Part shown: piece after piece, positions 3,740 to 56,790 of the stretch
How positions within the stretch are numbered: the first letter of the stretch is position 1
Layout of the letters: each line of letters starts with the position of its first letter
Assembly: GCA_025457885.1 (NCBI GenBank)
Contig: JALOTN010000006.1
Coordinates: forward strand, 5,635-69,634
Length of the DNA stretch: 64,000 nucleotides
Reading direction: 5' to 3'
From: Thermoplasmatota archaeon
Lineage (GTDB): Archaea > Thermoplasmatota > E2 > DHVEG-1
Translations under genes and position numbers: made by a program
Notes under the pieces: generated by a model
What the model was told of the DNA's origin: nothing
Databases searched by the model: none
Seen by the model: only the letters and a program-made list of their open reading frames with translations

Positions 3740-3954
3740 TGATATTTATAATTTTTGTGCGATTGACCAACGATAAGTAAAACATCGCACTACATATCAT
3801 CGGTTCCCATATTTGGCTCACCCGAAGTAATGGTTCTCAGGTGGACGTGTTTGTTTGTTCTGTGTGTTTTCCAATCATAAGCTCTTGAGGTTTAAATATA
3901 AAACATATTTATAGAAGAACATTGATGTAAAATATGAATGCAGGGGGAAATCAA

Positions 3955-5238
3955 ATGAAAAATAGGTTTGGTAAACGTAATCGACTAGAGGCGGCACTCA
4001 TCGTGACTATTTTGATAATACCTATGGCGACGACTGCGTTTGCCTCTTCCCCGCAGATGTTACCATTTAATTCACCAACAAAATCAGTTGCTTATTTCGG
4101 TGATGAAATTGAATTAAAATATTATGATGAAGAAAATCTTGATCAATTAATTGGTATTTCAGGAGATGAGCCACCCTATACCTGGAAATCCGCTATTCGA
4201 TTAACTCATGATGAAATGGAACCATATGCTGATTGGACAATGACAAAAGTCAATGTCGCTTTCTGTGCTGACAATGGACAATCAGAGATTGACGTTCAGA
4301 TTTTCATTTACGATAAGGGGACATCAACACTCCCTGGTCCCATCATTGTTGAGGACACCACCGCTTGTTTGAATACAACGGGTATCACTGCTATCCCATT
4401 GGTCACCCCGGTCGATCTTGCGGGTCATGATGAACTCTGGGTTGCTGTTCAATGGACTCAAACTGCTCCTGGGCCTGGAGTGTATTACGCATGGTTAGAC
4501 ACGTTATCTGGTCCGCATGTTCCCAATAAAAGTGATTTTATCTTTTATAATAACGCTTGGAATCAGTTGCATATTTTGGTTCCATCCGCTGATGGCCGCT
4601 GGGGGTTAGGGGCGATCATCGAAGGCAGTCTCCCCGAACCACCAAATACACCAGTTGTATCAGGGCCAACCAATGGCGAGGTCGGTAGTCACTACTCCTT
4701 TACTCTTAATTCAACCGATCCGGAGGATGATGATATCTATTATCTTGTCGATTGGGGTGATGGTACTTCTGAAGACTGGATGGGACCTTATGACTCAGGT
4801 GAGACTGTCACTGTATCTCATTCGTGGAGCGAAAGAGGAACATATGTATTACAGGCGAAAGCAAAAGACGACCATGGTATGGAAAGTACTTGGTCCGATC
4901 CGTTTTATATAACGATCAGAGGACCGATTCTGATGCTTGGTAATATCACTGGAGGGATTGGTCAGATCTCTGTCGATATTGATAACATCGGTGATGCGAC
5001 TGCAATGAACGTCATTTGGACCATTCAAATCACCGGTGGTTTACTCCATCGAACAATCGTGGATATGTCTGAGACAATCTCGGAGATGGCACCTGCCACT
5101 TCGATAAAGGCAAAAGTACGACCGATTGGTTTTGGGTGGATTACGATTACCGTGACAGTTCATGCTCAATATACTCAGGGGATTCAGAAAACAGATGAAG
5201 GTATTCTTCTGTTTTTCATCACTTCCTTCCCTCCTTAA
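3955..5238 (+). CDS. secreted surface protein with PKD-like domain
   Basis: Signal peptide (MKNRFGKRNRLEAALIVTILIIPMATTAFA) and a PKD-type module YYLVDWGDGTSEDWMGPYDSGETVTVSHSWSERGTYVLQAKAKDDHGMESTWS. A GGGGG RBS lies 8 nt before the ATG at 3955, so the start is preferred over 3934. Confidence 0.6.
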   Translation: MKNRFGKRNRLEAALIVTILIIPMATTAFASSPQMLPFNSPTKSVAYFGDEIELKYYDEENLDQLIGISGDEPPYTWKSAIRLTHDEMEPYADWTMTKVNVAFCADNGQSEIDVQIFIYDKGTSTLPGPIIVEDTTACLNTTGITAIPLVTPVDLAGHDELWVAVQWTQTAPGPGVYYAWLDTLSGPHVPNKSDFIFYNNAWNQLHILVPSADGRWGLGAIIEGSLPEPPNTPVVSGPTNGEVGSHYSFTLNSTDPEDDDIYYLVDWGDGTSEDWMGPYDSGETVTVSHSWSERGTYVLQAKAKDDHGMESTWSDPFYITIRGPILMLGNITGGIGQISVDIDNIGDATAMNVIWTIQITGGLLHRTIVDMSETISEMAPATSIKAKVRPIGFGWITITVTVHAQYTQGIQKTDEGILLFFITSFPP

Positions 5239-8043: not shown

Positions 8044-10707
8044 ATGTTCTCCTGGAGGATTTCTCGGGGAATACCATTAAGATTATATGAAAATAGGAGT
8101 TCTCTTTTTTTTGTCATGCTAAAGAACATCCGAGATGCCACCAGGTTTTTTCCTATCGGCATCCTGTTGACCAATGTGGTATGTGTTTTGTTTGTCCTGA
8201 CGGTTCTTTCTGGTGGTTTTGGATCTGTTATGATCTTTAGTCAGCAGCTACTCGCGGTTTTCCTGATGCTAGGGGTTTCATTGTGTAATGTACCCCTTCT
8301 TTTGATGCTGCGTCATCTTTCCAAACCATCGTTAGGCGCCCGCGTGATCCTTGTTGGGGTCTTCTTTTGGTTTTTTGGATTTCTGATCCTTATAGTATCA
8401 AAGACAAACCTTCTCTGGATCAGTAGTATTTCGATGATCCTCTCTGGGATTTTCCTCTGCCTTCAGGGGTTGGGTCGTCAGCGAAGCGACCTGCGTTTCC
8501 TCACCATTTCATCATTTTTATATGCTCTGGTGTTTCTTCTTCTACAAACCATCCCCTCCCTCTGGTCTGTGTATCAGCAAGGCTCCTTCATGGTGAGCCA
8601 TGCAGTTGGTTATCTCATCGGTTCTCCTCTCGCTTTAGGACCAACCACGAGTGGGGCAGGGATTTTCCTTTTAACTTGTGTGGTTCTCCTGGGTTGTTTC
8701 TTTGTCATAGGCAGGAAAACACGAAGGGATGTGCTCTGGTTTTGTTTCTGGATTGGCTTTTTATGTATTCTTTGGTTTGGGTATCTTCTCCTCCTGGGTC
8801 TACTGTCATATCCAGCATCTGATGCGTTGAACCTTCATCCGGTGTTGTTTCTTTTGTGTCTGATCCCTCTCTTTGTTTCCCTGCTATCCTCTCAAGACAG
8901 AATCATGATCTCAGGATCATCATTCATTCAAAAACACTCTCTTAGACCTCATCTCATGAATGGTGCGGTCTGGGCAGCTGTGTTTCTGTTCCTCTCCACC
9001 TTTCTGTTCACCTTGGTTCTTCCATCAGGATCCCTTCCAGTTGAACCGCAAAAAATCGTTTTCTATGGAGATCATATGGTGGGGACCTGGGATGTACCCG
9101 AATATGGGAAATACGGGAAGGATGCTGTCGGGATGTTCGGTCTTTGGCCGGTGACCCTCACCACCCTGGGGTATTCCACGGAGATTGTTGTAAAGGACCG
9201 CGGAAAATTTCTTAATACCACACAACCTTTGCTGCAGAACATCACCCGGTATCTGAACCTAACGGATTATACAGCCATCCAGGAGTCGTCCCAAGTCACC
9301 ACTTCGCTGCTTCAGGGCGCCTACGTTTTTGTCGTCTCCAACCTGAATGTCTCCTTTACCGAACAGGAACAATCCATCATCTGGGACTATGTGAGAGGCG
9401 GAGGCTCCTTGCTGGTCATCGGGGATCACACGAATGTTGGAGGCATGCAGGAGCCATTAAATGAGCTGCTTACCCCGGTAGGGATCCGATATCGGTTCGA
9501 CGCTGCACTCCCCCTGGATGAGAAATTCAAATGGCTCTCCTGCACACAGCTGCTACATCATCCCATCACAATGTCTCTTCTAAATCTTGATGAACTGCAA
9601 TATGGGGTCGGCGCCTCCCTTGATCTGTCATCCTCTGCCTTCCCCATCATCATCGGATCATCGGTCCTCTCAGATGAAGGGAACCGGTCCAATGCTGATA
9701 TCGCCTACCTTGGTGATTATGAATATAACAAGGGAGAACAACTAGGAGATGTGGTCCTAGTCGCTGGGGCGTTCTACGGTGATGGGAGGGTCCTGGTGTT
9801 TGGGGACACCTCTTCGTTCCAGAACCCTGCATTACCCTCATCCTATCGATTTGTTCAGACGTGTTTTTCCTGGCTCGCTCGTGAACAGACCGGGGTGTTC
9901 TTTTTGATTCAAACCGGTGCCTCCTTAGGGTTTCTCCTCAGTGCAATCCTCGTGTTCGTCTTCTTCAGGAAAAACTCGACATCATTCATCTGGTTCCCCG
10001 CTGTTCTGTGTATCTCCTTGATCCTCACGGTCATCCTCAATCCCCCCCTGGTCGCTCTCCCAAGGAATGATATGGGTTCTGTTGTGTACATCGATGCATC
10101 ACATACCGAACGATTCTCTCTTGAATCATTCACGGATGACTCCCTTAATGGCTTCCTGTTGAACCTGCAACGCAATAACCTTCACCCCCGCATCCTCAGA
10201 GAATTCAACATAGAAACCATCCAAGGAAGCAGCATGATTGTTTTTAACGCGCCAACCACCACGTTTACCTCTGATGAAATCAGGTTCCTCCAAACCTATA
10301 TGACTCAAGGGGGTGTCGTCCTGCTTGCCACAGGATTTGAGGATAAAACAGCCTCCCTTCCTCTTCTTTCATCCTTCGGGTTGGATGTCGAACCAACCCC
10401 GCTTGGTCCAGTCCCGTACGTTGAAGAGAACCTTTCCCTATATCAAAATGAACCACGGTTCGTGGACAGCTGGCCAATCACGTTCAATGGGAACCAAACC
10501 ACCTCCTATTATAACTTCACCTGGGATGATCTGACGTTCCACCTCGTCGTGTTCCAACCATACGGCGCAGGGGGGCTCCTACTTATCGGAGACAGCCAGT
10601 TCCTCCTCAACAAGAACCTGGAGTCCATCTACGATTACTGGCCGGGTAACATCCTGTTCATAAAATACCTCCTCGATGAATTACCATTACAGGAGAACTA
10701 CTCATGA
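8044..10707 (+). CDS. giant polytopic membrane protein with two extracytoplasmic alpha/beta (GldG/DUF4350-like?) modules
   Basis: 887 aa. The N-terminal ~340 aa hold at least 8 hydrophobic helices. Two repeated modules follow, carrying SLLVIGDHTNVGGM and LLLIGDSQF motifs, with an additional TM block around aa 620-670. The protein is a paralogue of the next gene. The family assignment is tentative. Confidence 0.6.
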   Translation: MFSWRISRGIPLRLYENRSSLFFVMLKNIRDATRFFPIGILLTNVVCVLFVLTVLSGGFGSVMIFSQQLLAVFLMLGVSLCNVPLLLMLRHLSKPSLGARVILVGVFFWFFGFLILIVSKTNLLWISSISMILSGIFLCLQGLGRQRSDLRFLTISSFLYALVFLLLQTIPSLWSVYQQGSFMVSHAVGYLIGSPLALGPTTSGAGIFLLTCVVLLGCFFVIGRKTRRDVLWFCFWIGFLCILWFGYLLLLGLLSYPASDALNLHPVLFLLCLIPLFVSLLSSQDRIMISGSSFIQKHSLRPHLMNGAVWAAVFLFLSTFLFTLVLPSGSLPVEPQKIVFYGDHMVGTWDVPEYGKYGKDAVGMFGLWPVTLTTLGYSTEIVVKDRGKFLNTTQPLLQNITRYLNLTDYTAIQESSQVTTSLLQGAYVFVVSNLNVSFTEQEQSIIWDYVRGGGSLLVIGDHTNVGGMQEPLNELLTPVGIRYRFDAALPLDEKFKWLSCTQLLHHPITMSLLNLDELQYGVGASLDLSSSAFPIIIGSSVLSDEGNRSNADIAYLGDYEYNKGEQLGDVVLVAGAFYGDGRVLVFGDTSSFQNPALPSSYRFVQTCFSWLAREQTGVFFLIQTGASLGFLLSAILVFVFFRKNSTSFIWFPAVLCISLILTVILNPPLVALPRNDMGSVVYIDASHTERFSLESFTDDSLNGFLLNLQRNNLHPRILREFNIETIQGSSMIVFNAPTTTFTSDEIRFLQTYMTQGGVVLLATGFEDKTASLPLLSSFGLDVEPTPLGPVPYVEENLSLYQNEPRFVDSWPITFNGNQTTSYYNFTWDDLTFHLVVFQPYGAGGLLLIGDSQFLLNKNLESIYDYWPGNILFIKYLLDELPLQENYS

Positions 10708-13238
10708 GACGGATCCTCTGGCTTGGAGCATTCCTTCTCTCCTCGAGTTGGCTGTTCCTCATCCCCCAGTTCATCACCCCGAATCTCCCCGCTGGGCTGC
10801 TCTGCGTCCTCTTTGGGGTCCTCTGCTTCATCATAGGAATCTCATCAGTTGTGACACCACAACCAAACCTTCGATACCTTGTTCTCCTTTTCCCGCTCAC
10901 TATAGCAGCACTCCTAGTGCCCTTCCCCCACAATCTCGGAGTAATACTCCTTGGCCTTGGGCTTCTTTTTGTCTTGCTTTGTTACCGCTTCGAACGACTC
11001 CAAGCAATCCCCCTAGGTATTTCCCTTGCGGGGGTCCTACTCCTCCTGCAGACCCTGATCTTTCCTTTGTACGTCTCCCTTGCTTCCCATGGACATCGAG
11101 TAGACGTCCTTGCCTCAGTGATCTCCCCGATCGCGAATTTCCTTGGATTCCATACCTCGGCAACCAACGGGTTCCTCTTTGTTCAAACCCTCCAGACCAC
11201 CCCCTTCACCATCACCTGGGAGAGCCTTGGATGCCCCCTAGCCCTTAACCTCTTTCTTGCTGGGTTTTTCCTTCTCCTCCTCTTCTCCAAGACCAAACAA
11301 CAGATGCTGAAAAACACCATCATTTTTCTCATTGCAGGGACATCATACCTCCTCCTACGCTTCATCGCAATCCTCTCATTGTATCTTACGACTACAGAGC
11401 TGTCCGTGTTCTGGGACCCCTTGCTCACCACCCTTAGTTTCCTCCCCTTCAGCCTCCTTCTCATGAAACTAATCCCCCTGCAGAAACACGAAACAGTCAC
11501 CATACAAGCCCCATCGATAAAAATGACAAAAAAACACCTCGCAACCATGGTTCTTTTGATTCTTCTTGTCTCTTCATTGACTGCCGCATTCCTCTATCAT
11601 GACCCTGGGGTGAAAAAAACAGGTCGCGTCCTCATCGATGAATACCACAGCCAATGGGAAGACACCCTCCGACCTCTGGATACCGAATGGTACGGACTGC
11701 TCTCCACCTACAATTATTATTCCTGGGGGCGCTGGATATCCTATCATTATCCTGTGGAGACGAACACCAATGAGACCTTCACCACCTCACTCCTCAGTCA
11801 CTATGATATCCTCATCCTGAAATGCCCCACCGAAAGCTACACCACCCAAGAAATCCAAGCGATCAAAGACTTTGTTACCCATGGCGGAGGACTCTACCTC
11901 ATCGGGGATCATACCAACGTTTTCGGGATGAACACCTTCCTAAACCAAGTCTCTGAGGAGTTCGGGATCCGGTTCAAAACCGATGCCTCCTACGAGCTAG
12001 GCACAGGGGACCTCTCAGTCTACACCCCAGACCGATCCTATGCTCACCCCGTACTTCGTCAGGTCCCCCAGTTCGAATTCATGACCTCCTGCACCCTGGA
12101 GCCCACCTCTCTCTCCGCGTCCCTCCAAATGGAAAACATCATCATCGGCAACCGACTCATCAGCGAACCAGGCACCTATTCAACAGAGAATTTCTTCAGA
12201 GAATCCATCGCCTCCCCAGACTCCGAATACGGATACCTGCTCCAAGCTGCAGCGATCACGTACGGCGCAGGCCGTGTCGTAGCCTTCACCGACAGCACCG
12301 TATTTTCCAGCTTCTGTCTCTACACAGATGGATATCCTGCGTTCACCCTTGGCGCGTTGGAGTACCTGAATCGATCAAACTCACCAGCACCCCTATCAAC
12401 CATCCTTTTCGTCCTCGCCGTCGTCCTGTTCCTCCTCATCGCTTATCTCGTAAAAAATATCAACAAAACATTTCTCCTCTGGATGATCCTGTTTTCCGGA
12501 CTACTTGCGTTCTGCCTCACTGCCCCCCTCTGCTCATATCTCACAGACCTCTCCTATCAACCCACAGAAGCCGCTCTCGATTATCCCACGGTGGTCTTCG
12601 AACAGCAACATTCGACGGTCAACATCTCAGTTAAACCCACCGCATCACTAGGGGTTACCTCCACGAACTACGGGACGTTCTACATCTGGACCCAACGAGT
12701 CGGACTGGTCCCATCACTTGCGCCAACCCTCCATGATGCGACCACAAACGGTGATGTTATAATCCTGATTAACCCAACACGAGCTTTCACAGAAACAGAT
12801 GTGAAGCTCATCACCACCTACCTCGAACACGGCGGACGACTGCTCCTCATGGACAGCATCACAAATCCTGAATCCACTGCCAATGAACTACTTGGGAATT
12901 TTGGACTCTGGATCACCACCGAATCAACAAATAAACCACTTTACACCAATGAAACCGAGAACGGAAGTCTGACGCTCCAAGGTAATATCACCACCCCGTC
13001 GCTCACCATCACCGGCGGAACTCCCCTCCTCATCAGCAATGACAACAACACCTATGCAAGCATGGTTGAAATTACAAACCCAGACAACACCAAAGCACCA
13101 GGATACTTCGTTGTCATTGTCGACTCTGCATCGTTTTCTGATGCTCAGATGGGTGGCACCTTCACGGAACCAACAGATCAGCAACGCCAGATCTACAATA
13201 CCGAGTTTTTCCTTCTCAGAACGCTCTTGTCTTCATAA
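10704..13238 (+). CDS. giant polytopic membrane protein, paralogue of the preceding gene
   Basis: 844 aa with the same architecture: an N-terminal multi-TM region, GLYLIGDHTNVFGM plus VVAFTDSTVF in module 1, RLLLMDSITN in module 2, and an internal TM block. An ATGA overlap with the upstream gene indicates an operon. Confidence 0.6.
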   Translation: MRRILWLGAFLLSSSWLFLIPQFITPNLPAGLLCVLFGVLCFIIGISSVVTPQPNLRYLVLLFPLTIAALLVPFPHNLGVILLGLGLLFVLLCYRFERLQAIPLGISLAGVLLLLQTLIFPLYVSLASHGHRVDVLASVISPIANFLGFHTSATNGFLFVQTLQTTPFTITWESLGCPLALNLFLAGFFLLLLFSKTKQQMLKNTIIFLIAGTSYLLLRFIAILSLYLTTTELSVFWDPLLTTLSFLPFSLLLMKLIPLQKHETVTIQAPSIKMTKKHLATMVLLILLVSSLTAAFLYHDPGVKKTGRVLIDEYHSQWEDTLRPLDTEWYGLLSTYNYYSWGRWISYHYPVETNTNETFTTSLLSHYDILILKCPTESYTTQEIQAIKDFVTHGGGLYLIGDHTNVFGMNTFLNQVSEEFGIRFKTDASYELGTGDLSVYTPDRSYAHPVLRQVPQFEFMTSCTLEPTSLSASLQMENIIIGNRLISEPGTYSTENFFRESIASPDSEYGYLLQAAAITYGAGRVVAFTDSTVFSSFCLYTDGYPAFTLGALEYLNRSNSPAPLSTILFVLAVVLFLLIAYLVKNINKTFLLWMILFSGLLAFCLTAPLCSYLTDLSYQPTEAALDYPTVVFEQQHSTVNISVKPTASLGVTSTNYGTFYIWTQRVGLVPSLAPTLHDATTNGDVIILINPTRAFTETDVKLITTYLEHGGRLLLMDSITNPESTANELLGNFGLWITTESTNKPLYTNETENGSLTLQGNITTPSLTITGGTPLLISNDNNTYASMVEITNPDNTKAPGYFVVIVDSASFSDAQMGGTFTEPTDQQRQIYNTEFFLLRTLLSS

Positions 13239-13328
13239 AAAAACCCTTTTTTTTCTTTTGATTCGTCCTTATTATCCAGGATAAGCATTAAATACAGGAA
13301 CAACGATAAGTTTCTCGGGGAAAGAAAT

Positions 13329-13997
13329 ATGGAGAAAAAAACTCTCATCTTAACCGTATCGGCAGCTGCCCTCATCGTGTTTGCTTCGTTTAGCTCTGTG
13401 GTTGGCTTGACAAACGAACAATCATCAGAACAAACCAAATCACCATTGTTTGCGATTCGTACGCAACGGTCGATTCAAACAACACATGAACAAACTATAC
13501 AATCACAATACCTGGGGAAAGGGATAACCTCTCAGTTGTTCCGCTCACGACAACCATCGCTCGATAGCGCCTTGGATCGAGTAGTGAAACTGCTAAATAC
13601 GAATCCTGATTTTTTTGCAAAAATCCTAAAAACCATCACTTCAAATCCACAGGTACAATCTCTTTTGAAGAAACAAGGGATGACGATGGATGAATTTAGG
13701 ACCTATCTGAATCAACTTAAAAATGATCCATCCCTCTTCATTGAGCAGATCCGCCGTGCGGAACCAAAGTTCTCAGAACAACAGTTACAATCACCGGCTC
13801 CACTGAGTTTGAACACCACAAATCCCTTCGCGTGTGTCATCACTGCGATTGTCATGATCCCTGTTGTGCTGGTAATCGGTCTGATTGTCGTGTTATTCAC
13901 CTTACGTATCCTGCAATGTCTGAACTTTAATGAGGTCATGAATAACCTTATGGAACAGATCTTACAGGGTCTTACTCCTGGAGAGTACCTTCTCTAA
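13329..13997 (+). CDS. secreted/membrane-anchored hypothetical protein (signal peptide + C-terminal TM)
   Basis: 222 aa with an N-terminal signal MEKKTLILTVSAAALIVFASF and a C-terminal hydrophobic helix (VITAIVMIPVVLVIGLIVVLF). It sits on the same strand directly after the giant pair. Confidence 0.45.
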   Translation: MEKKTLILTVSAAALIVFASFSSVVGLTNEQSSEQTKSPLFAIRTQRSIQTTHEQTIQSQYLGKGITSQLFRSRQPSLDSALDRVVKLLNTNPDFFAKILKTITSNPQVQSLLKKQGMTMDEFRTYLNQLKNDPSLFIEQIRRAEPKFSEQQLQSPAPLSLNTTNPFACVITAIVMIPVVLVIGLIVVLFTLRILQCLNFNEVMNNLMEQILQGLTPGEYLL

Positions 13998-14072
13998 TCA
14001 TTTTTCTCTTTCTTTTTATTTTTCCTGCGATATATTTATATAGATTTCCAGAGAATGTGTACTAGTACGAAT

Positions 14073-15113
14073 ATGATTTCTCATTTGAAAACCATCCTTC
14101 ATTGTCTAGGGGTATTGCTCCTTTTAGTAATCGGGAGTGTGCCTCTTGAAGCCCAACCAGAAAAAACGGAATATGCCTCTTCTTCTCCTTCTTATGATAT
14201 GGTCATCCGAGAGGGGCTCTCTGCGATAGAACAGCAACAGAAAAGAGAAGCTGATGACTCCCAGCAGCTCTCATCGCTGGTAACCTGGTATACCACACAT
14301 CCACTCATCGAGTATGCAAGCTGCATTGAACGATCTATCACGGTGCGATTCATCGATGGTTCCTATGTAGTTCTCTTCGATCCCTTGTCTGGCACATCAG
14401 AATCCGTTATTGGTACGCAGTGGCCTTCGATTCATCAAAGATATCTGGGTCCTACAAACAAAACCGCTGTTATCCTTAACCCTGCTGAATCCATGTATGG
14501 TCATCATCAATGCCAGCGGATTATCACCACCTTGTTACAGAAGGATTATTCGATTGAATATCTCGCAAACCAGGCAGTGGATGTATCGTATATCAGAAAC
14601 AATCTGTCCGCATCAATCATCTACATGAACACCCATGCGGGGTACTTTGATATCGATGGGGATCTTTTAGCAGATGCTGTGGTCATCGCAACGGGTGAGC
14701 CTTGGACGAACGAAACAGAAATTAAATACGCTGAGGAGATTCAGAACCATCTGATTGTCAAAGGTATGGTTGGTGACCAGGGGTTTGTGACATTCACCCC
14801 AGCATTTATTGAACAATATTATTCAACAAACCCGTTCCCAGGTTCTCTGGTGTTCATGGCAACGTGTTATGCTTTGGCGGACAGTTCTATGGCACAAGCG
14901 TTCCTTAATACCGGTGCATCGGTTTACCTAGGCTGGTCTCAGAACACGGTGTTCTGGACCAATAGCAGGACCTCCGTGCAGGTGTTTCATCTTCTGGCTC
15001 TGGGTGTTCCTGTTCAGTTGATCTGTCGGATGATTCGCTCGGGAGGATTCTATAACTGGTTGTTCCATTCAAAACTCATGTATATCGGGGATGGTACCTA
15101 CACTATCCCGTAA
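14073..15113 (+). CDS. secreted caspase/gingipain-fold (clan CD-like) protein
   Basis: Signal peptide present. A candidate His (IYMNTHAGYFD) lies about 78 aa upstream of a candidate Cys in a hydrophobic strand (LVFMATCYALADS). The same spacing and pattern occur in the C-terminal domain of the 1239-aa protein. The upstream TATA box sits too close to the 14055 ATG, so 14073 is preferred. Confidence 0.4.
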   Translation: MISHLKTILHCLGVLLLLVIGSVPLEAQPEKTEYASSSPSYDMVIREGLSAIEQQQKREADDSQQLSSLVTWYTTHPLIEYASCIERSITVRFIDGSYVVLFDPLSGTSESVIGTQWPSIHQRYLGPTNKTAVILNPAESMYGHHQCQRIITTLLQKDYSIEYLANQAVDVSYIRNNLSASIIYMNTHAGYFDIDGDLLADAVVIATGEPWTNETEIKYAEEIQNHLIVKGMVGDQGFVTFTPAFIEQYYSTNPFPGSLVFMATCYALADSSMAQAFLNTGASVYLGWSQNTVFWTNSRTSVQVFHLLALGVPVQLICRMIRSGGFYNWLFHSKLMYIGDGTYTIP

Positions 15114-15116
15114 GAA

Positions 15117-15141
15117 TTTTTTTTTTTTTTTTTTTTTTTTT
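15117..15141 (+). terminator. T25 homopolymer filling the entire gap between convergent genes
   Basis: 25 consecutive T directly after the stop at 15111..15113 form a strong oligo-U terminator for the plus gene. The tract also overlaps the TAA stop of the minus-strand gene at 15140..15142. Confidence 0.5.
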
Positions 15142-18019: not shown

Positions 18020-18892
18020 TTATAGCAATCCTGCCTTCTGCAGGACCATCAGATCCTCAGTGCTGAGTTTCTCTCCACGTTTGAACCGTTCGAAGATATC
18101 ATCAGCCTCTTTCTGAGCAGCAGACACGTCAGCTAATTTTTTCTTTTTCTCTTTCTTCTTTTCGCTGCTTGAGATGTTTTTCTCCAGTTCATGAATATTG
18201 TTCACATGGTCGATGAATTCTTTATGAAGTTTATCCGCCTCGATTTTTGTTACAACGATATTCTCCTGAATCTCCGTGGTGCGTTTCACAAGTTTATCCA
18301 GCTGTTTGAGCAACTCCAGCATCTCCTGGTGTTCCTCTTGTGCTTTCTTCGCCATCTTCTCAACAAGCTCATGTTGTTTCTCTGCTTTCTGCCGTGTCAG
18401 TTTCTCTTCCTCGATTGCTTTTTTCAGTTTGGGGTCTTTGTTGAGTTTCTCATCAGCTTCCTTTATCTTCAAGGCGATTCCTTTGATTGTCTCAATCAAT
18501 TTTTTTTCTTTCTGGGCAGACATGGGTTGAGTCATCTGCTCTGTTTCTAGTTTCCTGAGATATTGTTTCAACTCGTTGACGTTCACACCAGAATTCGACG
18601 CTCGTTCCCGTTCAAGCTCTTTGATTTGTTTTTTTAAATCAAGATGATGGGTTAAAAACTCGTTGCGCTGCTCTTTTGCATGCTTCACTCGTTCGTTATA
18701 CTCGTCACGTTTCTTCTTATGTTCACTGATCTGGTTACGCATCTGTCGAACCTTTGCGTTCAGCTCGTCGCGCTCGCGCGCCATTTTCTTGGATTGGTCA
18801 TGGAGCTGGTCCCTGCTTTTTTTCAAATGGTTCGCTTTCTCTTGCAGGTCGTCCTTTTTTCGGACCATGTCTTCTAGTGGTTCATCGTCCAT
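18020..18892 (-). CDS. archaeal coiled-coil protein (COG1340-like)
   Basis: 290 aa with K/E/R-rich heptad repeats. It is a paralogue of 27720..28616. Confidence 0.6.
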   Translation of the reverse strand: MDDEPLEDMVRKKDDLQEKANHLKKSRDQLHDQSKKMARERDELNAKVRQMRNQISEHKKKRDEYNERVKHAKEQRNEFLTHHLDLKKQIKELERERASNSGVNVNELKQYLRKLETEQMTQPMSAQKEKKLIETIKGIALKIKEADEKLNKDPKLKKAIEEEKLTRQKAEKQHELVEKMAKKAQEEHQEMLELLKQLDKLVKRTTEIQENIVVTKIEADKLHKEFIDHVNNIHELEKNISSSEKKKEKKKKLADVSAAQKEADDIFERFKRGEKLSTEDLMVLQKAGLL

Positions 18893-21172: not shown

Positions 21173-24100
21173 ATGAGTAATACAAAATATTTTAAAAAGT
21201 CAAAAATTCAGGCAGTTGTCATAGCGCTCTTATTTGTAGGAACAGTACTTATCCCTATAAATAGCATCGCTGCGAACCCAACCTCACCAAATGATACCTC
21301 GAAAAAGAATTATTTTACAGAAGACAATGAAGGAACTTTCATCCTAGATCGAAGTTATTACCTGATGGATGAAAACCCAGCATCTATGGGCACTGCGGAC
21401 AATGATGACGCAGGATATAAGAAAGACGCTGGATTGGATCTCCCCAGATCCTTAGCCCTTTATCCAGGAGAACTGATCGATGAGACACCTGGTCGTGGGA
21501 GATTTGGGAAAATCTCTTCTACGGATAACAGCGATTGGTTTTTCTTCTCCGTCTGTCAAGGACAACAGATTGTCTTTACCGTCACACCACCCTCAGGGTT
21601 TGATGTAAACCTTTCCTTATGGACCTCCGCAGGAGTCATGATGACTTCCTCAAACAACTCCGGAAGTGTCCCAGAGACAATCACCTATACCGCCGCCTAT
21701 ACCGGAAAATGGTATATCTGGATTAAATACGTCAGTGGAAGCGGCACAGGAAGATACTCGTTTGCAGTAAGTTTCACAAATCAAAATGATGCGAACAGCG
21801 GTGCTGACGCCCCGAATGTTCGAACCTCCGCACTGCTCCTCACACCAGGGACCTATTTCGGATTCGTCGATATGAACGACCCCTATGACTGGTATAAGAT
21901 ACAAGCCACAACCGGTCAAGGCATCAACGTTTCATTAAAGATGAAGGACCTCTCGTATCTTACCGATTTTGATCTTCAACTATATAATCCAAGTGGTGCC
22001 CTCGTCTTCGAAGGCAACCAATACTACGATGATGTCTTCAGCTATCCAGCCGACGTCACGGGACAATGGAGCGTCCGTGTGGATATCTTCCCTGGATGGG
22101 TTGATTGTCCTGCACCAACCGAATGGAGTTACTACTCCTATGGTTCTGGAGCTTACAACCTGACCTTAAAACTAGATACCAGTGGAGTTACTCCACCTGG
22201 GCCAATCCCACAAAAGGACATCACCCCTATCGCGAAGACCTACAAGGTCGTTAATGATGCTTCCAGCACCAAAGATGACTTCGCATACCTTGCAGCAATC
22301 CCAGCTTGTAACTACCTTGATGGCGGTCAACGCTATGTAGCACCTATTATTTACACAGGAGACACCACACCAACTGCATACTACGATGATGAGACCTCCT
22401 TTGGGACCGTGGATGATACCACCCAGTACCTCGTTGATGATTGGAATACCTATCTTGCATTATTCGGTAAAACCCCAGAACAATATACCCTAGCAGCCGA
22501 CCCGATCCAAGCCGCAGCTGATATCGCCACACGAGATTGGACGTCTTCCCAAACCGCGGTAGTCGCCGTCGATGGATCTGGTTTTGAAGATACTGTAAAA
22601 ACCGTTCTGAAACGAACCGCGACCCTGAAACGACAGTCAAGTGTTGAGACCGTCACTGGAGATAGCACTAAAATAAGAAGTATTGGAGGGTCGTATGGAT
22701 ACCCGATTTTCCTTGGACCAAAATGGTGCGCCCTGAACGTCAGCATGTATGGAGCTGGAGGAGCAACCCCTACCATTGGTGCAATACTCCCCTTATACAT
22801 GACCATGGCACAGGATTGGTGGCCAATCCCCAACGATGAGACCGTGGGACCTAGAGATGACATGTTCTACCCCGTGAACCGCATGGGAATCTGGGTCGCT
22901 GGAACCGATATCGTCAACCCTGGATGGACCTTGAATGTCACAAAAATCGCTGGAGACCGCTATCGATTCAAGGTCGCCAATGCAGACTCCGTCATCAATG
23001 CAGTAATCACCACTACTGAAGCATCTGATTTGTTAGTCTTCCTCATCGACCCACAGGGTAACCTTCGAGCACCAACCATGCCCGCCTGGAATGGGCCCGT
23101 CAGTCCTATCCATGTCTGGAATGGACTGGAGAACCCACCATCTAACCCCTGGAGATGCTGGAGGCCTGCTCCTCACACAGAATTCTCCGCTGAAGTCCTC
23201 CACCCTGAGACAGGGTTATGGACCGCGATTGTCGTACCTCGTGATGTTGGTGGTTCTAATACGAAATATACTCTCACCGTCGATGTTCGAACCGTCAACT
23301 CTGACCGTTCTGATGCGGAGATCTCCGCTGCGAACGCGGCAGTGATTGCCTCATTGAACCACTACCCGTTACTCTATGTCAACGCGGATAGTATCCCTGC
23401 GGCAACCGCAAGTGCATTCACCACTCTTGGAGTCACCAAGGTTATTTTCGTTGAACGTGGGGAAATCGGCGCAGTCGTCCGAACAAGCCTTCCAACCGTC
23501 GAAAAGGACCTGAAGACCCAACAGGAAATTGTTGATGAGATTAAGAGCTACCCTGCTTCTGAAAACTATGTCACAGCCACCTCCACAAAGACTGGGGAAG
23601 GATACTTTGCCTCAGCAGCAATGCTTGCTGCATACCACGGTGCCCCCGTCATCCGAGTCGAGGATGCACCAGATGGTGATCCCGCTGCGGTCGCACAACG
23701 AATCCACACCTGGCAACGCTGGGATGGAGATTTCTACCATGGATCCCGATCCACAGGGCATCTCCCACAAGCAGATGCACCTGTTGAACAGAACAGACTC
23801 AAAGTCTACATGACCTTGATACGGTTCTTCCTTGGTCAAAACGTCTCAGTCCCACCCTATGGACTTGATGCGAAACGCTACTGGAATGAAGAGATGTACA
23901 CCAAATTCCACAACTACATCGTTAGCCTAGGTCTGGACCTTGACGGCCAAGAAGGATACGTCACCGTCGCACCACGAGACGACATCACCCTTGAATTACA
24001 CTCCGCTCTCATGGGAAACAACTCCTATGCTGGTGACATCCCTGGAATTACCCCAGCATATTCCAGTGACATTGTAGTCCGAAACATTCTCTACCCTGCA

Positions 24101-24892
24101 TTGATTTTCGCCAACCCCAACCGGAACACCACCACAACACAACTGATGAACTACCCGGATGGTGGCTCCTGGCGGACCAACGATGGGAAAACTACACCTT
24201 CCTTCTCTAGCCGGGACGTCAAGAACTCGTTTAGCTCCCATCTCAGGACCTATGAAGGTCACTGTCTCTGGGTCGCTCACCTTGAACGAATGAACGAAGG
24301 TGCCAGTGCCATGTATTACTCAGGGCATGGAACCGGAGGTAGCGGTGTTTCTGCCCAATATGTCCAAACAGAGCACTGTAACTATCCGGAGCAAATCTGG
24401 TGGGACGCCTGGCGTGGATACATGTTCGACAACTGGAAGACCTCTCGAGACACTGGGATGGTATGGTACAATGCAGAACCACCAACTCTCTACGATATCA
24501 TCCACTACAAATGGGTCGATCAGCTGTTGGAGAACCTCCGCAGTCAAGCAACCTTCTACATGTCCTGCACCAGTGCAGATGGAGACATGCCGATGATCTA
24601 CCTTGATCATGGGTCTGTCTGCGTGTATGGGAATGCTGGAACCGGGTTGTGCCCCGAGGCGGACTTACAGGATGACCTGTTCTTCAGAGACGTCATGATC
24701 GATGGAGAACCAATCGGTCCTGCCTACACAAAACAAGTCTGGCTGCACTTCAGAGACTTCACCACCAGTGACCCGACCGCGATGTATGGGACATCATCCA
24801 TGCAGGTCACCACGATTCAGTGTATCTATGGTGACCCAAGTCTCATCGTCTACAGTCCTGAGTGGACAGCACCAGTACCCATTGATGCGTAA
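21173..24892 (+). CDS. giant secreted protein: signal peptide + two PPC (pre-peptidase C-terminal) beta-sandwich domains + C-terminal gingipain(C25)-like catalytic-type domain
   Basis: 1239 aa. A GGGGG RBS precedes the start and a signal peptide is present. PPC-like blocks occur at aa ~100-200 and ~215-330 (DWYKI..., GxYxLxL). The C-terminal region carries YYSGHGTGG (His) and ATFYMSCTSADG (Cys), the clan CD dyad pattern. Confidence 0.6.
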   Translation: MSNTKYFKKSKIQAVVIALLFVGTVLIPINSIAANPTSPNDTSKKNYFTEDNEGTFILDRSYYLMDENPASMGTADNDDAGYKKDAGLDLPRSLALYPGELIDETPGRGRFGKISSTDNSDWFFFSVCQGQQIVFTVTPPSGFDVNLSLWTSAGVMMTSSNNSGSVPETITYTAAYTGKWYIWIKYVSGSGTGRYSFAVSFTNQNDANSGADAPNVRTSALLLTPGTYFGFVDMNDPYDWYKIQATTGQGINVSLKMKDLSYLTDFDLQLYNPSGALVFEGNQYYDDVFSYPADVTGQWSVRVDIFPGWVDCPAPTEWSYYSYGSGAYNLTLKLDTSGVTPPGPIPQKDITPIAKTYKVVNDASSTKDDFAYLAAIPACNYLDGGQRYVAPIIYTGDTTPTAYYDDETSFGTVDDTTQYLVDDWNTYLALFGKTPEQYTLAADPIQAAADIATRDWTSSQTAVVAVDGSGFEDTVKTVLKRTATLKRQSSVETVTGDSTKIRSIGGSYGYPIFLGPKWCALNVSMYGAGGATPTIGAILPLYMTMAQDWWPIPNDETVGPRDDMFYPVNRMGIWVAGTDIVNPGWTLNVTKIAGDRYRFKVANADSVINAVITTTEASDLLVFLIDPQGNLRAPTMPAWNGPVSPIHVWNGLENPPSNPWRCWRPAPHTEFSAEVLHPETGLWTAIVVPRDVGGSNTKYTLTVDVRTVNSDRSDAEISAANAAVIASLNHYPLLYVNADSIPAATASAFTTLGVTKVIFVERGEIGAVVRTSLPTVEKDLKTQQEIVDEIKSYPASENYVTATSTKTGEGYFASAAMLAAYHGAPVIRVEDAPDGDPAAVAQRIHTWQRWDGDFYHGSRSTGHLPQADAPVEQNRLKVYMTLIRFFLGQNVSVPPYGLDAKRYWNEEMYTKFHNYIVSLGLDLDGQEGYVTVAPRDDITLELHSALMGNNSYAGDIPGITPAYSSDIVVRNILYPALIFANPNRNTTTTQLMNYPDGGSWRTNDGKTTPSFSSRDVKNSFSSHLRTYEGHCLWVAHLERMNEGASAMYYSGHGTGGSGVSAQYVQTEHCNYPEQIWWDAWRGYMFDNWKTSRDTGMVWYNAEPPTLYDIIHYKWVDQLLENLRSQATFYMSCTSADGDMPMIYLDHGSVCVYGNAGTGLCPEADLQDDLFFRDVMIDGEPIGPAYTKQVWLHFRDFTTSDPTAMYGTSSMQVTTIQCIYGDPSLIVYSPEWTAPVPIDA

Positions 24893-27719: not shown

Positions 27720-28616
27720 TTATCCGGAGAGGGTAATCTTCTTTCCACCTTTGAGTGCTTCTACGGATTGTTCTGCGACTTTCTCGAGTTTTTCGCTGTC
27801 CATGAGTTCCTTGCGTGCTTTGAGGTTCTGATTGCGGAGGATTTCCCGGTTTTCTTGGAAGCGTTGCATCCGTTCTTTTTTCACGGTCACAATCTTGGAT
27901 CGCATCTCGAGGGCTTTCTCATGGTTGCTTTGAGCTTCCTCTCTGACTTCGATGTATTTTTTATGTTTCTTATTGGCTTCACCGATGAGCGTGGCGATCT
28001 CATTGACTATTTTTTTGTATTCCTCATGTTTCTGTTGACTCTCATTGTAGTATTTCTGGACTTTTTCATGTTCTGTGTCTGCTTTTTTGAATAATTCTGT
28101 GATTGCTTTATCGGTGTCGGTAAGATCGACTTCTATGAGTTGTTGTTTTTCCATTTGTTTTTTTACTTCGTTGTATTCTTTTCGTTTTTGTTTGATGCGT
28201 TCGATCAGTTTGTTTTCCTTACGGGTGTCCAGGATGGTTGTCTCCTGTTCGTATTCCATCATTTGGATGTCTGCTTTGATTTCCTCTACTCGGAGCGGTA
28301 GGTTTTTTACGACATCCCCTTTTTTCTTTCGTTTCGCGTCAATAAGCTCTTTTGCCTGCTGTTGATACTGGTTCCTCTTCTCCTTGTGTTCCTTCATCTT
28401 TGCAACGAGTTTTTCCCGTTCTTTTTTGACTTTGTCCATGTCGGTTTTGAGTTCTTTGCGTTTATCATTGAGCATGTCTCGTTCGTCTCTGAACTGTTTT
28501 GCGACCTGGTTGAGCTCGTTACGCTTCTCGATGAGGCTTTGGTATTTCTTCTCTGCATTTTTTAGTTGCTCAAGGTCTTCTTTCTTTGTCGTTTCTTTAT
28601 CGCTCACAAGAGACAC
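27720..28616 (-). CDS. archaeal coiled-coil protein (COG1340-like), paralogue
   Basis: 298 aa with heptad K/E-rich repeats, the same family as 18020..18892. Confidence 0.6.
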   Translation of the reverse strand: MSLVSDKETTKKEDLEQLKNAEKKYQSLIEKRNELNQVAKQFRDERDMLNDKRKELKTDMDKVKKEREKLVAKMKEHKEKRNQYQQQAKELIDAKRKKKGDVVKNLPLRVEEIKADIQMMEYEQETTILDTRKENKLIERIKQKRKEYNEVKKQMEKQQLIEVDLTDTDKAITELFKKADTEHEKVQKYYNESQQKHEEYKKIVNEIATLIGEANKKHKKYIEVREEAQSNHEKALEMRSKIVTVKKERMQRFQENREILRNQNLKARKELMDSEKLEKVAEQSVEALKGGKKITLSG

Positions 28617-39850: not shown

Positions 39851-40034
39851 AATTTTGATGTTTTTTTCAACAAAAATGAAGAATCATTTTTCCGAATACT
39901 ATCTTATTCGTTCCAAAAACGTTTTTACAGGGAAAAAGTAACAGATACTCGATATGTATTTAGAGGAAAAAATATATAGAAAGTTTTATTAGTAATGACA
40001 CCTATGTACAATTGTTGTGTTATGGGGGAATCCT

Positions 40035-42152
40035 ATGCATAAAATAATAAAAATTGGTTTAATTATTGGTATTACTATCGCTTTTTTAACGCCAGTATCG
40101 TTAGTTATCGCTGATGATATTGAACCACCGGTCATCACCTCTATCCTCTATACACCCCATGCTGGTGTACGGACTGACCCTGGTTTCTTCTTATACCAAT
40201 CCTGCATTGTCACTGATAATGTCAGTGTCGCTGATGTGAAAATCAACATGACTGGACCAGCGGGATTTACTCCGATAAACACTACCATGACCAATGCAGG
40301 CGGGGGCAACTACTCCTATCAAGTCGATCCTGTTACCTTTTCAGGAACTTACACCTTTTTCATCTGGGCTATTGACACCTCAAACAACACTGCTCAATCA
40401 AGTCTCTATCATATGCTTGTGTTCGAAAATTATCTTCCTTATATTCATGTCGATGGGAATAACACCGTAGGCCCCTGGAATGGGACTGAGGAATATCCGT
40501 TACAGTTCATCAGTGATGCACTCGCGGTGCTTGCCGAGAACGGGACGATCTTTTTACATGCGGGAGTGTATCAGAACACGTCAATCTCTCTTGAAAAAAA
40601 CATGGTTCTCCTAGGTGAAAACCAACAGACCACTATTCTTGACGGCGCAGGGTTGACTGCGATTGAAATCAACGGGAATTATCTGGTCACCATTTCACAA
40701 CTGACGATTCAAAATGCAGGCATTGGAATCTCATTATTTAATGGAACGAATGCGACGATCTCCTCGTGTATCTTCACAAACAATCTCATCAGTGGCATCG
40801 ATCTTTATGAGTATCATAACCTCCTGGTTACGGATTGTGTTTTTCTTGATAACGCAAAAGCGATTCAGCTGACGAATGCGACGGACAATAAGATTTATCA
40901 TAACAACTTCATCAACAATCTTGTTCATGTTTCATGTCACCTCGATACCTCCTACAACATATGGGATAATGGAGTGACTGGGAACTACTGGGATAATTAT
41001 CGGTTGCTGTATCCCGCAGCCGACATCGACCCGTCAACAGGTACTTGGGACACTGCGTATGTGGTCAACGTCTCAGGGATCAATATCGATAATCACCCCT
41101 GGGTCTACCCTTCAGGATATATTGATACGATTCCACCACAGGTGACGGTTCTTTTCCCGAACGGGGGAGAAACCCTCTATGGAGAAATCACTATTCAATG
41201 GACTGCAACTGATGATCAAACCCTGGATTTGGACGGATCCATCCTCCTTGAATACAGCGCTGATAACGGCGCTAGTTGGAATACTATAGCTGCCCAGTTG
41301 AACAACACCGGGTCATATCTTTGGAACACCAGCCTTGTCTCCGATGGAGGCCTGTATCTTATTGCAGTGACTGCGATTGATGAGTTCTACAACGTTGGCA
41401 CAGATCGATCTGATGCAGTGTTCATCATCAATAACTTTGCCATGGAAACACCTGAGATCACTGGTCCTTTCCAGGGGGGAAATGGGATTCCCTTCAGCTT
41501 TACTGCTGTGGCGTATCATCCTGGTGGTGAACAGATTTACTATATCTGGGACTGGGGGGATGGCAACATTAGTGAATGGTATGGTCCGTACAACTCCAGT
41601 GTGCCGATGACGATAACGAACATCTGGGCAAATGACGGAGTCTATGATGTCCGGGTCAAAGCACGATACTCTGGTGGGAGCGAAAGCAACTGGTCCACGG
41701 TTCATCCCATGGTCGTTGCGGAACAGATTAATTTCTCCAATGTAAAACTAGGGACTATCTACTTTAAATTGTTCAATTTCAACCGTTCATTTATTTTCTC
41801 TGAATTCCTTGCTCGTATTGGGATGGTATTTATCCTTACTACCCATGAAATGGAGTTACAGGGTTATGCAACTGATGTAGTCAAAAAAGTGGACTTTCTT
41901 GCAGAAAACCAATTGAAGATTGAGACGGGGCAATTCACTGATGATGACGGCTCCGATGGGTTCTCCTGTGTGTTGAATGTAACCCGAGGAGCATATATCC
42001 TGAATATCACTGCCTATGATGCCAATGGAACCTTAGTCGATAAATATAGCCTCTTTACTGTCTTCTTCATCCGAATCGGGCGGTATGCCACAGGACTTGG
42101 CGGCGAGGGTCGCTTGCAGCGTCTCCAGGATATCCCCCGATTACGCGATTAA
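40035..42152 (+). CDS. secreted right-handed beta-helix (NosD/pectin-lyase-like) protein with PKD module
   Basis: Signal peptide present, with a GGGGG RBS before the ATG at 40035. Parallel beta-helix repeats (ISSCIFTNNLISGIDL..., CVFLDNAKAIQL, YHNNFINN) and the PKD module YYIWDWGDGNISEWYGPY...DGVYDVRVKARYSGGSESNWS. Confidence 0.6.
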   Translation: MHKIIKIGLIIGITIAFLTPVSLVIADDIEPPVITSILYTPHAGVRTDPGFFLYQSCIVTDNVSVADVKINMTGPAGFTPINTTMTNAGGGNYSYQVDPVTFSGTYTFFIWAIDTSNNTAQSSLYHMLVFENYLPYIHVDGNNTVGPWNGTEEYPLQFISDALAVLAENGTIFLHAGVYQNTSISLEKNMVLLGENQQTTILDGAGLTAIEINGNYLVTISQLTIQNAGIGISLFNGTNATISSCIFTNNLISGIDLYEYHNLLVTDCVFLDNAKAIQLTNATDNKIYHNNFINNLVHVSCHLDTSYNIWDNGVTGNYWDNYRLLYPAADIDPSTGTWDTAYVVNVSGINIDNHPWVYPSGYIDTIPPQVTVLFPNGGETLYGEITIQWTATDDQTLDLDGSILLEYSADNGASWNTIAAQLNNTGSYLWNTSLVSDGGLYLIAVTAIDEFYNVGTDRSDAVFIINNFAMETPEITGPFQGGNGIPFSFTAVAYHPGGEQIYYIWDWGDGNISEWYGPYNSSVPMTITNIWANDGVYDVRVKARYSGGSESNWSTVHPMVVAEQINFSNVKLGTIYFKLFNFNRSFIFSEFLARIGMVFILTTHEMELQGYATDVVKKVDFLAENQLKIETGQFTDDDGSDGFSCVLNVTRGAYILNITAYDANGTLVDKYSLFTVFFIRIGRYATGLGGEGRLQRLQDIPRLRD

Positions 42153-42253
42153 AGAAGAATATTTAAATAGTAAGAAATCGAACATACCTATGAAGGAGAA
42201 ATGAGAATCATCCTCTTGTGGATGAAATGATAAAAAATAATATGAGGGATTAT

Positions 42254-56744: not shown

Positions 56745-56790
56745 ACCAACCCCTTCATCAATATACTATTGACTCCATACATATGTATTC

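Follow-up and report, generated by a model that had tools for sequence, protein, structure and literature searches.

What is the role of two giant membrane proteins that an archaeon encodes side by side, followed by two secreted proteins? The question is raised by a 64,000-nucleotide stretch of DNA (the window) from a Thermoplasmatota archaeon, in which four genes, here called A, B, C and D, lie head-to-tail on the plus strand. The large proteins A and B form a pair that recurs in archaea and bacteria, and next to them are exported proteins which share a short N-terminal Ser-Pro-Leu-Phe (SPLF) motif. We tentatively favor, at somewhat less than an even chance, a widespread three-part and ATP-independent envelope system in which an A/B heterodimer would dock SPLF-tagged exported proteins. 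The four open reading frames (ORFs) have the coordinates given in a first, sequence-only reading of the window, including the overlap of A and B:

8044-10707, plus strand: gene A, 887 amino acids from the first ATG, probably 863 from Met25 at 8116
10704-10707, plus strand: ATGA shared by the stop of A and the start of B, read directly in the sequence
10704-13238, plus strand: gene B, an ORF of 844 amino acids
13329-13997, plus strand: gene C, an ORF of 222 amino acids
14055-15113, plus strand: gene D, an ORF of 352 amino acids, probably 346 from Met7 at 14073

Architecture of A and B

A and B are paralogs (26% identity over 429 residues, E=3e-24) with 11 transmembrane (TM) helices each, and the ATGA overlap of their genes suggests translational coupling. 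They share the following layout, all motif coordinates being on the plus strand:

A, up to residue 333: block of about nine TM helices
A, residues 334-616: GIFT module 1, with GDHTNV (residues 460-465; 9421-9438) and GDTSSF (residue 587; 9802-9819)
A, residues 617-674: TM hairpin
A, residues 675-887: GIFT module 2, with GDSQF (residue 849; 10588-10602)
B, residues 1-299: block of nine TM helices
B, residues 300-557: GIFT module 1, with IDEYHSQWE (11634-11660), GDHTNV (residues 401-406; 11904-11921) and DSTVFS (residue 530; 12291-12308)
B, residues 558-614: TM hairpin
B, residues 615-844: GIFT module 2, with MDSIT (residue 716; 12849-12863) and VDSASF (13119-13136)

Comparison with hhalign relates module 1 to module 2 within each protein (probability 99.1% and E=1.9e-18 in B; 97% and E=7.9e-11 in A), and same-numbered modules of A and B to each other with probabilities of 99.9% and 99.3%. 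The paralogy, the duplicated modules, the TM hairpin between them and the motifs quoted in the sequence-only reading are thus all found in place. Both proteins exceed Pfam cut-offs, A for IFT52_GIFT (PF23355; 42.6 bits, cut-off 27.2) and DUF4350 (PF14258; 38.8 bits, cut-off 30.4), and B for IFT52_GIFT (53.4 bits), ABC_transp_aux (PF09822; 47.5 bits, cut-off 34.7) and DUF4350 (41.5 bits). The nearest solved relative is the GIFT domain of IFT52, with an E-value of 5e-4 for the single sequence and of 1.8e-9 for the family profile of B module 2. These matches substantiate the resemblance to GldG, DUF4350 and class-I-glutamine-amidotransferase-like domains that the sequence-only reading had proposed.

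In an alignment of bacterial B proteins the mean column identity is 32%, yet about 45 residues are invariant, many of them polar; they include E313, W318, Y336-N337, K373, G401-D402-H403-T404-N405, R524 and D530-S531-T532 (window numbering), and module 1 of B has invariant stretches rich in aromatic and acidic residues (STYNYYSW and EPGTYSTENFFRES). Common to module 1 of A and of B are GG...IGDHT, (F/T)DA, HP and D(S/T)(S/T)xF. So many conserved polar residues in the ectodomains argue for a pocket that binds a specific ligand or is catalytic, and less for a passive scaffold. By analogy with class-I glutamine amidotransferases, GDHT would follow the strand that normally bears the nucleophile. 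The sequence-only reading had allowed for the motif being private to this pair; family alignments show IGDHTNV conserved well beyond it. A search for Rosetta-stone fusions among longer B homologs returned additional C-terminal Ig-like domains only (SdrD_B, CarboxypepD_reg, SpaA).

Distribution of the pair and the search for an ABC partner

Close homologs of B, of about 843 residues, number more than 300 in Thermoplasmatota, and a scan with a single genome for each GTDB species, covering both prokaryotic domains, gave at least 237 matches. Outside Thermoplasmatota there are full-length homologs with 30-36% identity over about 840 residues. The bacterial hosts belong to Desulfobacterota, Chloroflexota, Planctomycetota (including anammox bacteria), Acidobacteriota, Ignavibacteriota, Bacteroidota, Lentisphaerota, Armatimonadota, Bacillota, Thermotogota and others, and Methanothrix also has full-length homologs. 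In all, A/B is found in about a dozen phyla, all of the genomes being metagenome-assembled (MAGs).

For a comparison of neighborhoods, genes were called in 85 loci. An A-type gene lies directly upstream of the B-type gene in 41 of 41 distinct archaeal loci and in 25 of 32 distinct bacterial ones, and the orthology is unambiguous: upstream genes score with A, downstream genes with B. The four-nucleotide overlap recurs in 31 of the 41 archaeal loci and in several bacterial loci. Four loci from Chloroflexota and an unclassified bacterium (L055, L067, L072, L075) hold a B-type gene but neither an A-type gene nor a detectable SPLF partner; they may represent a reduced or differently organized variant of the system.

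Could A and B serve, as in GldAFG, as GldG-type accessories of an ABC-2 exporter, with the genes for its ATPase and permease elsewhere in the genome? The ABC_transp_aux and GldG models match both proteins, a protein identical to B is on record as 'GldG family protein' from a Candidatus Thermoplasmatota MAG, and the succession of TM helices, ectodomain and TM helices around module 1 resembles GldG. However, the GldG equivalog model TIGR03521, with a cut-off of 389.85 bits, yields local matches of only 14.0 bits for A and 32.4 bits for B, and no ORF in the window combines a Walker A motif with an ABC (ATP-binding cassette) signature in a motif scan. Among the 85 loci, a single one has an ABC-ATPase-like ORF within 10 kb, and this ORF is on the opposite strand; the lack of an ABC ATPase that the sequence-only reading had remarked on therefore extends to 84 of the 85 loci. 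Furthermore, A and B carry a nine-TM domain of their own with a conserved polar site, unlike GldG, and what is conserved next to them is no transporter but a tagged secreted protein. Given the missing ATPase and an equivalog score far below the cut-off we have rejected the accessory role, which we regard as distinctly unlikely, and the label 'GldG family protein' is a misleading annotation for these genes.

A family of SPLF-tagged exported partners

The clue to what A and B may act on comes from protein C:

13440-13451, plus strand: SPLF tag of C (residues 38-41, in SPLFAIRTQRS)
13824-13913, plus strand: C-terminal TM anchor of C (residues ~166-195), followed by a short tail

C starts with a signal peptide and further comprises the tag, a YLGKG motif and a helical region ahead of its TM helix, in keeping with its earlier description as a secreted, TM-anchored protein of 222 residues. 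It matches no Pfam or NCBIfam family, has two cysteines only, and resembles the family described here solely in its N-terminal ~70 residues (SPLFAIRTQRS, YLGKG). Its relatives in deeper Thermoplasmatota are shorter (108-145 residues); a signal peptide and SPLF/Y-x-IRT are followed by a Cys-rich tail that varies between them. Two copies are frequent, and the genes are sometimes located upstream of A. In bacteria, neighbors of A/B have a signal peptide followed by Ser-Pro-(Leu/Ile/Val)-(Phe/Tyr) and an amphipathic helix, as in SPLFKASLEKSIAKLEG, SPIFEKALQRTLKAWQKQ and SPLFEESLKKTVEEFES. Across both domains of life the tag keeps a constant distance of ~6-13 residues (about 10) from the likely cleavage site, and one to three such exported proteins are co-encoded with A/B. 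BLAST clustering had first suggested that C and D were limited to Thermoplasmatota and that the bacterial neighbors were random, and the link emerged from reading N-termini; clustering missed the partners because they are of low complexity and have only the short N-terminal motif in common.

To quantify the association, ORFs were screened for a hydrophobic stretch with the motif 3-40 residues behind it. Up to 3 kb from A/B, 66 tagged ORFs were found (18.4 per 100 kb), compared to three farther away (0.6 per 100 kb), two of which are true members at 4.1-4.5 kb; tagged ORFs are thus about 30-fold more common beside A/B than elsewhere. Five permuted control motifs gave 0-5 near matches. Among loci with at least 3 kb of sequence on both sides (16 archaeal and 16 bacterial), the strict motif is present in 14 archaeal and 10 bacterial ones; among the loci without it, two have either a truncated copy or the variant TPLF. 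As a prospective test, four loci were fetched afterwards; all have the A-then-B pair and a Cys-rich neighbor, and three have the tag or a close variant:

Dehalococcoidales locus: downstream protein of 366 residues, NSPLFGAELQKAISTF, WPEC repeats, C-terminal TM helix
Locus of an unclassified bacterium: protein of 318 residues, SSPAFSVALDRAVNQLEG, 40 Cys
Locus on a 5-Mb contig: protein of 1431 residues made of TFDPxxxxC repeats, its N-terminus lying outside the locus
Methanothrix locus: divergently encoded ORF of 433 residues, GAPLFDYRYSQVAEEL, 43 Cys

Beyond the tag, the partner bodies contain 4-14% Cys and 12-26% Ser+Thr, some as (x-x-T-C)n arrays, and others consist of ~80 tandem 12-residue units (TFDPDDPRCExT, EPTMDPGDPEC) with 30% Asp+Glu. 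None of the SPLF partners falls into a Pfam or NCBIfam family. Multiheme cytochromes were considered and rejected, as 19 partners contain not one CxxCH motif. Giant secreted proteins of 1000-1450 residues also occur beside A/B in bacterial loci (L083:4234-7350, L066:3985-7017, L070:2865-7208, L087:1-3417), built almost entirely of ~80-120 tandem units of ~12 residues with a single Cys each, with ~30% Asp+Glu, 14% Pro and no heme or CxxC motifs, and without a Pfam or NCBIfam match; from their composition, they may bind metal or mineral, or may be substrates for modification.

C-like genes stay with A/B where D is missing and the gene order is altered (L024, L028, L030, L033, L049). In four of these D-less loci from deeper Thermoplasmatota, an opposite-strand gene separates A/B from the short Cys-rich SPLF genes and encodes a protein of ~500 residues (L024:8589-10016, L028:6474-7955, L030:7198-8742 and L033:13173-14783, all on the minus strand); it combines a class-I-glutamine-amidotransferase-like BPL_N domain with a Big_7 Ig domain.

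The membrane domain of B

If A and B do handle these proteins, where would the active site be? A confident AlphaFold2 model of B residues 1-305, based on 147 diverse sequences (predicted local distance difference test, pLDDT, 93.2; predicted TM-score, pTM, 0.89), has nine TM helices, to which an insert adds a helix (135-146) and a sheet of three strands (151-169). The polytopic N-terminal block of the sequence-only reading is thereby upheld, and its count of about eight TM helices gives way, for B, to nine plus an extracytoplasmic insert of a helix and a β-hairpin. The block belongs to no family in Pfam or NCBIfam and its model has no structural neighbor in the PDB; the likenesses looked for, to GT-C, ABC-2 permease, SecDF/RND, Rce1/CPBP, WaaL/SEDS and YidC folds, were not found. 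Its conserved residues include:

11094-11360, plus strand: polar cluster of B, consisting of His131 (11094-11096, in SHGHRxD), Glu173 (11220-11222, in TWEKLG) and Arg219 (11358-11360, in YLxLRY)
11409-11414, plus strand: Phe236-Trp237 of B, 3' of the polar cluster

Arg219 is invariant in the 147 sequences, and His131, Glu173, Gln116, Phe236, Trp237 and Pro248 are at least 90% conserved. The cluster and the other conserved residues of the block are predicted to lie near the outer leaflet. According to the positive-inside rule, the N-terminus is cytoplasmic, with the insert of B (130-176) and both GIFT modules outside; A and B together have 18 N-x-S/T sequons, 15 of them in the ectodomains, and the C-terminal Ig-like extensions of long homologs agree with external modules. 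The predicted topology of both proteins is thus N-in, modules out. The TM block of A, in contrast, is poorly conserved, with only W174, G199 and G204 kept in the family, and is marginally related to that of B (hhalign probability 41-47%). As A has lost the polar cluster of B, a pairing of one active with one degenerate subunit is suggested.

The size of the block, ~300 residues with 8-9 TM helices and conserved residues at the outer face, together with co-encoded exported proteins that carry a short conserved tag, brings to mind a diverged exosortase- or archaeosortase-like domain, which would make the system a sorting transpeptidase. Arg219 lies ~45 residues after ExxG, similar to the Cys...Arg spacing of archaeosortase A, and one of 75 TM domains matches TIGR04178 (exo_archaeo) at E=0.0066. 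However, the other 74 match no exosortase model, none of the 75 matches Pfam Exosortase_EpsH, and no conserved position of the block is a Cys in these sequences. In addition, His131 lies N-terminal to Arg219, not C-terminal, and the tag is N-terminal rather than a C-terminal TM sorting signal. Lacking a conserved catalytic Cys, the defining feature, this candidate was rejected, and of the explanations considered here we hold it to be the most improbable.

An alternative use of the cluster would be a machine driven by the proton motive force, following the logic of SecDF or RND proteins, which moves or releases the SPLF proteins, or metal bound to their cysteines, across or along the envelope. 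Tandem coupled paralogs with large ectodomains and no ATPase would fit, as would the invariant Arg219 inside a TM helix accompanied by Glu173 and His131, and the Cys content of the partners, free of heme motifs, is compatible with metal binding. Against this speak the predicted position of the cluster at the outer face instead of mid-membrane, a fold unlike that of any PDB transporter, SecDF and RND proteins included, and the lack of evidence for a channel, so that we consider such a machine improbable.

Somewhat less improbable, though still unlikely, is a glycan machine akin to oligosaccharyltransferase (OST), which would refine the docking system that we favor by naming its chemistry. Here, the TM domain of B would bind a polyprenyl-phosphate sugar at its outer His, Glu and Arg, the GIFT modules would bind sugar, and the Thr/Ser/Cys/Asp-rich SPLF proteins would act as acceptors. 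OST48 is a member of the GIFT superfamily, and sugar binding by OST48/Wbp1 has been proposed (PMC7226087). Module 2 gives weak matches to OST48_N, and there are weak matches to the middle domain of GH42 β-galactosidases; the invariant aromatic and acidic residues of B module 1, an outer-leaflet Arg and His that could bind phosphate, and the Ser+Thr content of the repeat partners would also be in line with it. On the other hand, the OST48_N matches are below the Pfam cut-off, no glycosyltransferase, flippase or sugar-nucleotide gene is conserved beside A/B, and the partner in the window, C, has no repeat region. Examined for membership, A and B fall into none of these four classes, be it OST-like machine, remote ABC accessory, mover driven by the proton motive force or exosortase-like enzyme.

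A proposed docking system for tagged surface proteins

How, then, could the three components work together? We infer that A and B most likely assemble 1:1 into a heterodimer which presents four GIFT domains outside the membrane. After export by the Sec pathway, the SPLF-helix would serve as a targeting tag that docks a protein onto the A/B ectodomains. Docking would keep the protein at the membrane surface for an ATP-independent handling, be it by tethering, by assembly or, in most lineages, by modification of its Cys/Thr/Asp-rich repeats; in the present archaeon, the partner C is repeat-less and itself membrane-anchored. As an invariant tag is co-conserved with invariant pockets in two domains of life, direct recognition is the simplest explanation. 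The surface protein handling that the sequence-only reading had envisaged would fit the tagged partners; the degradation it offered as the other option found no specific support.

Several observations weigh against this scenario. The link between A/B and the SPLF proteins is one of co-location only. Seven bacterial loci carry B without A, and six of the 32 loci with full flanks have no recognizable partner. The detector was built with the motif already in view, which is mitigated by the far-region control, the permuted motifs and the prospective loci. Close relatives within Thermoplasmatota add little independent evidence for C or D, as their synteny reaches into housekeeping genes. Because the C-terminal parts of the partners vary between Cys repeats, a TM anchor and a type IX secretion system (T9SS) tail, a single handling chemistry is not obvious. 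Finally, the many invariant polar residues of B are more in keeping with an enzyme than with passive docking, and a match to a catalytic family is missing.

A more far-reaching proposal we advance with marked reserve, as possible but on balance doubtful. It holds that the system is a novel tag-directed pathway, in which the N-terminal SPLF-helix directs Sec-exported, mostly Cys-repeat proteins to a heterodimeric GIFT enzyme with a new TM fold for ATP-free modification, cross-linking or tethering. Such a pathway would be comparable in kind to exosortase/PEP-CTERM, with unrelated parts.

GIFT domains link processes as different as bacterial gliding (GldG), eukaryotic intraflagellar transport (IFT52) and oligosaccharyl transfer (OST48), and we know of no biochemical role for the GIFT domains of these three proteins. 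With A/B and the proteins with their four-residue tag, a GIFT system is at hand whose partner can be defined and tested. Should docking of the tag onto the GIFT modules be real, the tag would be the first ligand for this class of domains, and the system would represent a new route of surface-protein handling in microbes of anaerobic sediment and wastewater, as well as provide a function for secreted proteins with up to ~100 single-Cys repeats.

Protein D, a neighbor with a caspase-like fold

Does D belong to this system? It is secreted or N-terminally anchored, and its AlphaFold2 model (pLDDT 87) matches metacaspases, caspases, legumain, GPI transamidase and clostripain; as modeled, its fold is unambiguously that of clan CD (caspase/gingipain/CHAT-like), in agreement with the caspase-fold assignment made from the sequence at the outset. 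Its candidate catalytic dyad consists of:

14634-14636, plus strand: His194 of D, in NTHAG
14865-14867, plus strand: Cys271 of D, in MATC

Neither residue varies among 63 sequences, and each comes after a predicted strand (E188-191 and E265-268, respectively). No Pfam or NCBIfam model matches D, including those of the clan-CD families C25, C14, C13, C11 and CHAT. Close homologs number 121, all in Thermoplasmatota, and a profile search of the full library (E<=1e-3) adds 1012 distant D-like representatives, many of them large secreted proteins that also have NosD/β-helix, PKD, Ig or propeller domains; their D-like region (P0385-P0497 included) is likewise outside all Pfam models. Further D-like domains were found neither elsewhere in the window nor in the loci. 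Exported peptidases of other kinds occur beside B in two loci, a Peptidase_C25 protein in L043 and an S41 peptidase in L044, which is a weak hint only; the former was considered as kin of D and shows no relation to it by hhalign.

D accompanies A, B and C only where the whole neighborhood is syntenic, and is absent from reshuffled, bacterial and deeper archaeal loci. This bears on a further explanation, that C and D are merely syntenic neighbors without functional link, the module being the A/B pair or each gene acting alone. The wider gene order in Thermoplasmatota is kept even at 39-52% identity in B, and the spacers ahead of C and D suggest separate transcripts, as discussed below. For C, this explanation is contradicted by the linkage of the SPLF family to A/B in unrelated phyla, with differing gene orders and strands; for D, whose absence from bacterial and deeper archaeal loci speaks in its favor, nothing contradicts it. 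Taken for both genes together, we think it quite unlikely. Of the four-gene module proposed in the sequence-only reading, a core of A, B and the C family thus stands in archaea and bacteria, and D is a gene of Thermoplasmatota relatives only. Its membership is uncertain, since the flanking housekeeping genes are syntenic as well. D, probably a secreted clan-CD cysteine peptidase with an intact His/Cys pair and a lineage-specific neighbor of A/B, may act on the same surface proteins.

Relation to known systems

With GldG, A and B share an extracytoplasmic GIFT domain placed between TM helices, a hydrophobic strand with GG...D and a C-terminal strand of the (G/T)D(S/T)xF type. They differ from it in having two GIFT modules each, a fused N-terminal nine-TM domain, a heteromeric pair of paralogs and a tagged secreted neighbor, and in the lack of GldA and GldF partners at the loci. 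In OST48, too, two α/β modules face away from the cytoplasm as part of a membrane complex; however, this protein has a single TM helix and STT3 as a partner, whereas the modules of A and B sit on polytopic TM domains, with no AglB/STT3 link beside the pair. IFT52 (PDB 5fmr, 8bd7), the best solved relative by sequence, is cytoplasmic and soluble.

The closest described archaeal system is that of arCOG01314/DUF4350, for which a vWA-MoxR complex in secretion or membrane remodeling has been predicted (Makarova et al., 2015, PMC5898192). Like A and B, its GldG-like DUF4350 proteins have ectodomains and are predicted to form envelope complexes. However, each of them has a signal peptide and a lone TM helix at the C-terminus, and their genes neighbor those of vWA and AAA+ (COG0714) proteins, compared to 11 TM helices and two modules in A and B; vWA/MoxR neighbors are absent from the window, and the loci have no such conserved cluster. 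In the literature on DUF4350, archaeal GldG and PF09822 we found no description of the A/B architecture or of the SPLF tag, in line with the impression from the sequence that this fusion had no described counterpart.

The tag-sorting systems, that is exosortase/PEP-CTERM, archaeosortase/PGF-CTERM, sortase/LPXTG and the C-terminal domain of T9SS, offer an analogy in which a membrane protein is found beside exported proteins with a short motif and variable bodies. In contrast to these, the SPLF tag is N-terminal, ~10 residues past the cleavage site and not followed by a TM sorting helix, and A and B have neither a catalytic Cys nor family-level similarity to the sorting enzymes. D compares in the same way with clan CD (gingipains R/K of family C25, CHAT, separase, metacaspases), showing no family membership at the sequence level.

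Gene boundaries and surroundings

The later starts of A and D given above are supported by gene calling and by homolog lengths: for A, Met25 at 8116 is the start called on an identical public contig (L085) and agrees with homologs of 861-873 residues, and for D, gene callers and homolog lengths favor Met7 at 14073. The B/C and C/D spacers contain T-rich stretches and TATA-like boxes, so that C and D probably have promoters of their own and the four genes are probably not a single transcript. Downstream of D lies a conspicuous homopolymer:

15117-15141, strand not applicable: run of 25 T between D and a convergent creatininase-family gene

Archaeal transcription terminates at oligo-T stretches, and this run, unusually long even for an archaeal terminator, is probably one that marks the 3' end of the block. 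The flanking genes are archaeal housekeeping genes, with Memo and deoxyhypusine synthase upstream and the creatininase-family gene, MetAP, Sua5, MBF1 and DUF7121 downstream.

A Pro-rich ORF of 190 codons (10676-11248), which overlaps B in another frame, is spurious. Other predicted surface proteins are abundant in the window (3934-5238, 21173-24892, 28658-31486 on the minus strand, 40017-42152 and 42218-43318); they have PKD, PPC, CARDB and NosD/β-helix plus PKD domains, and none carries an SPLF tag or a D-like domain. GC skew is -0.26 to -0.29 over genes B and C (10001-14000) and again at 56001-58000, and about zero elsewhere in the window. Finally, DUF7121 is present as two coiled-coil, Lys/Glu-rich paralogs 9 kb apart on the minus strand (18020-18892 and 27720-28616), the first of which belongs to the block that is syntenic throughout Thermoplasmatota.

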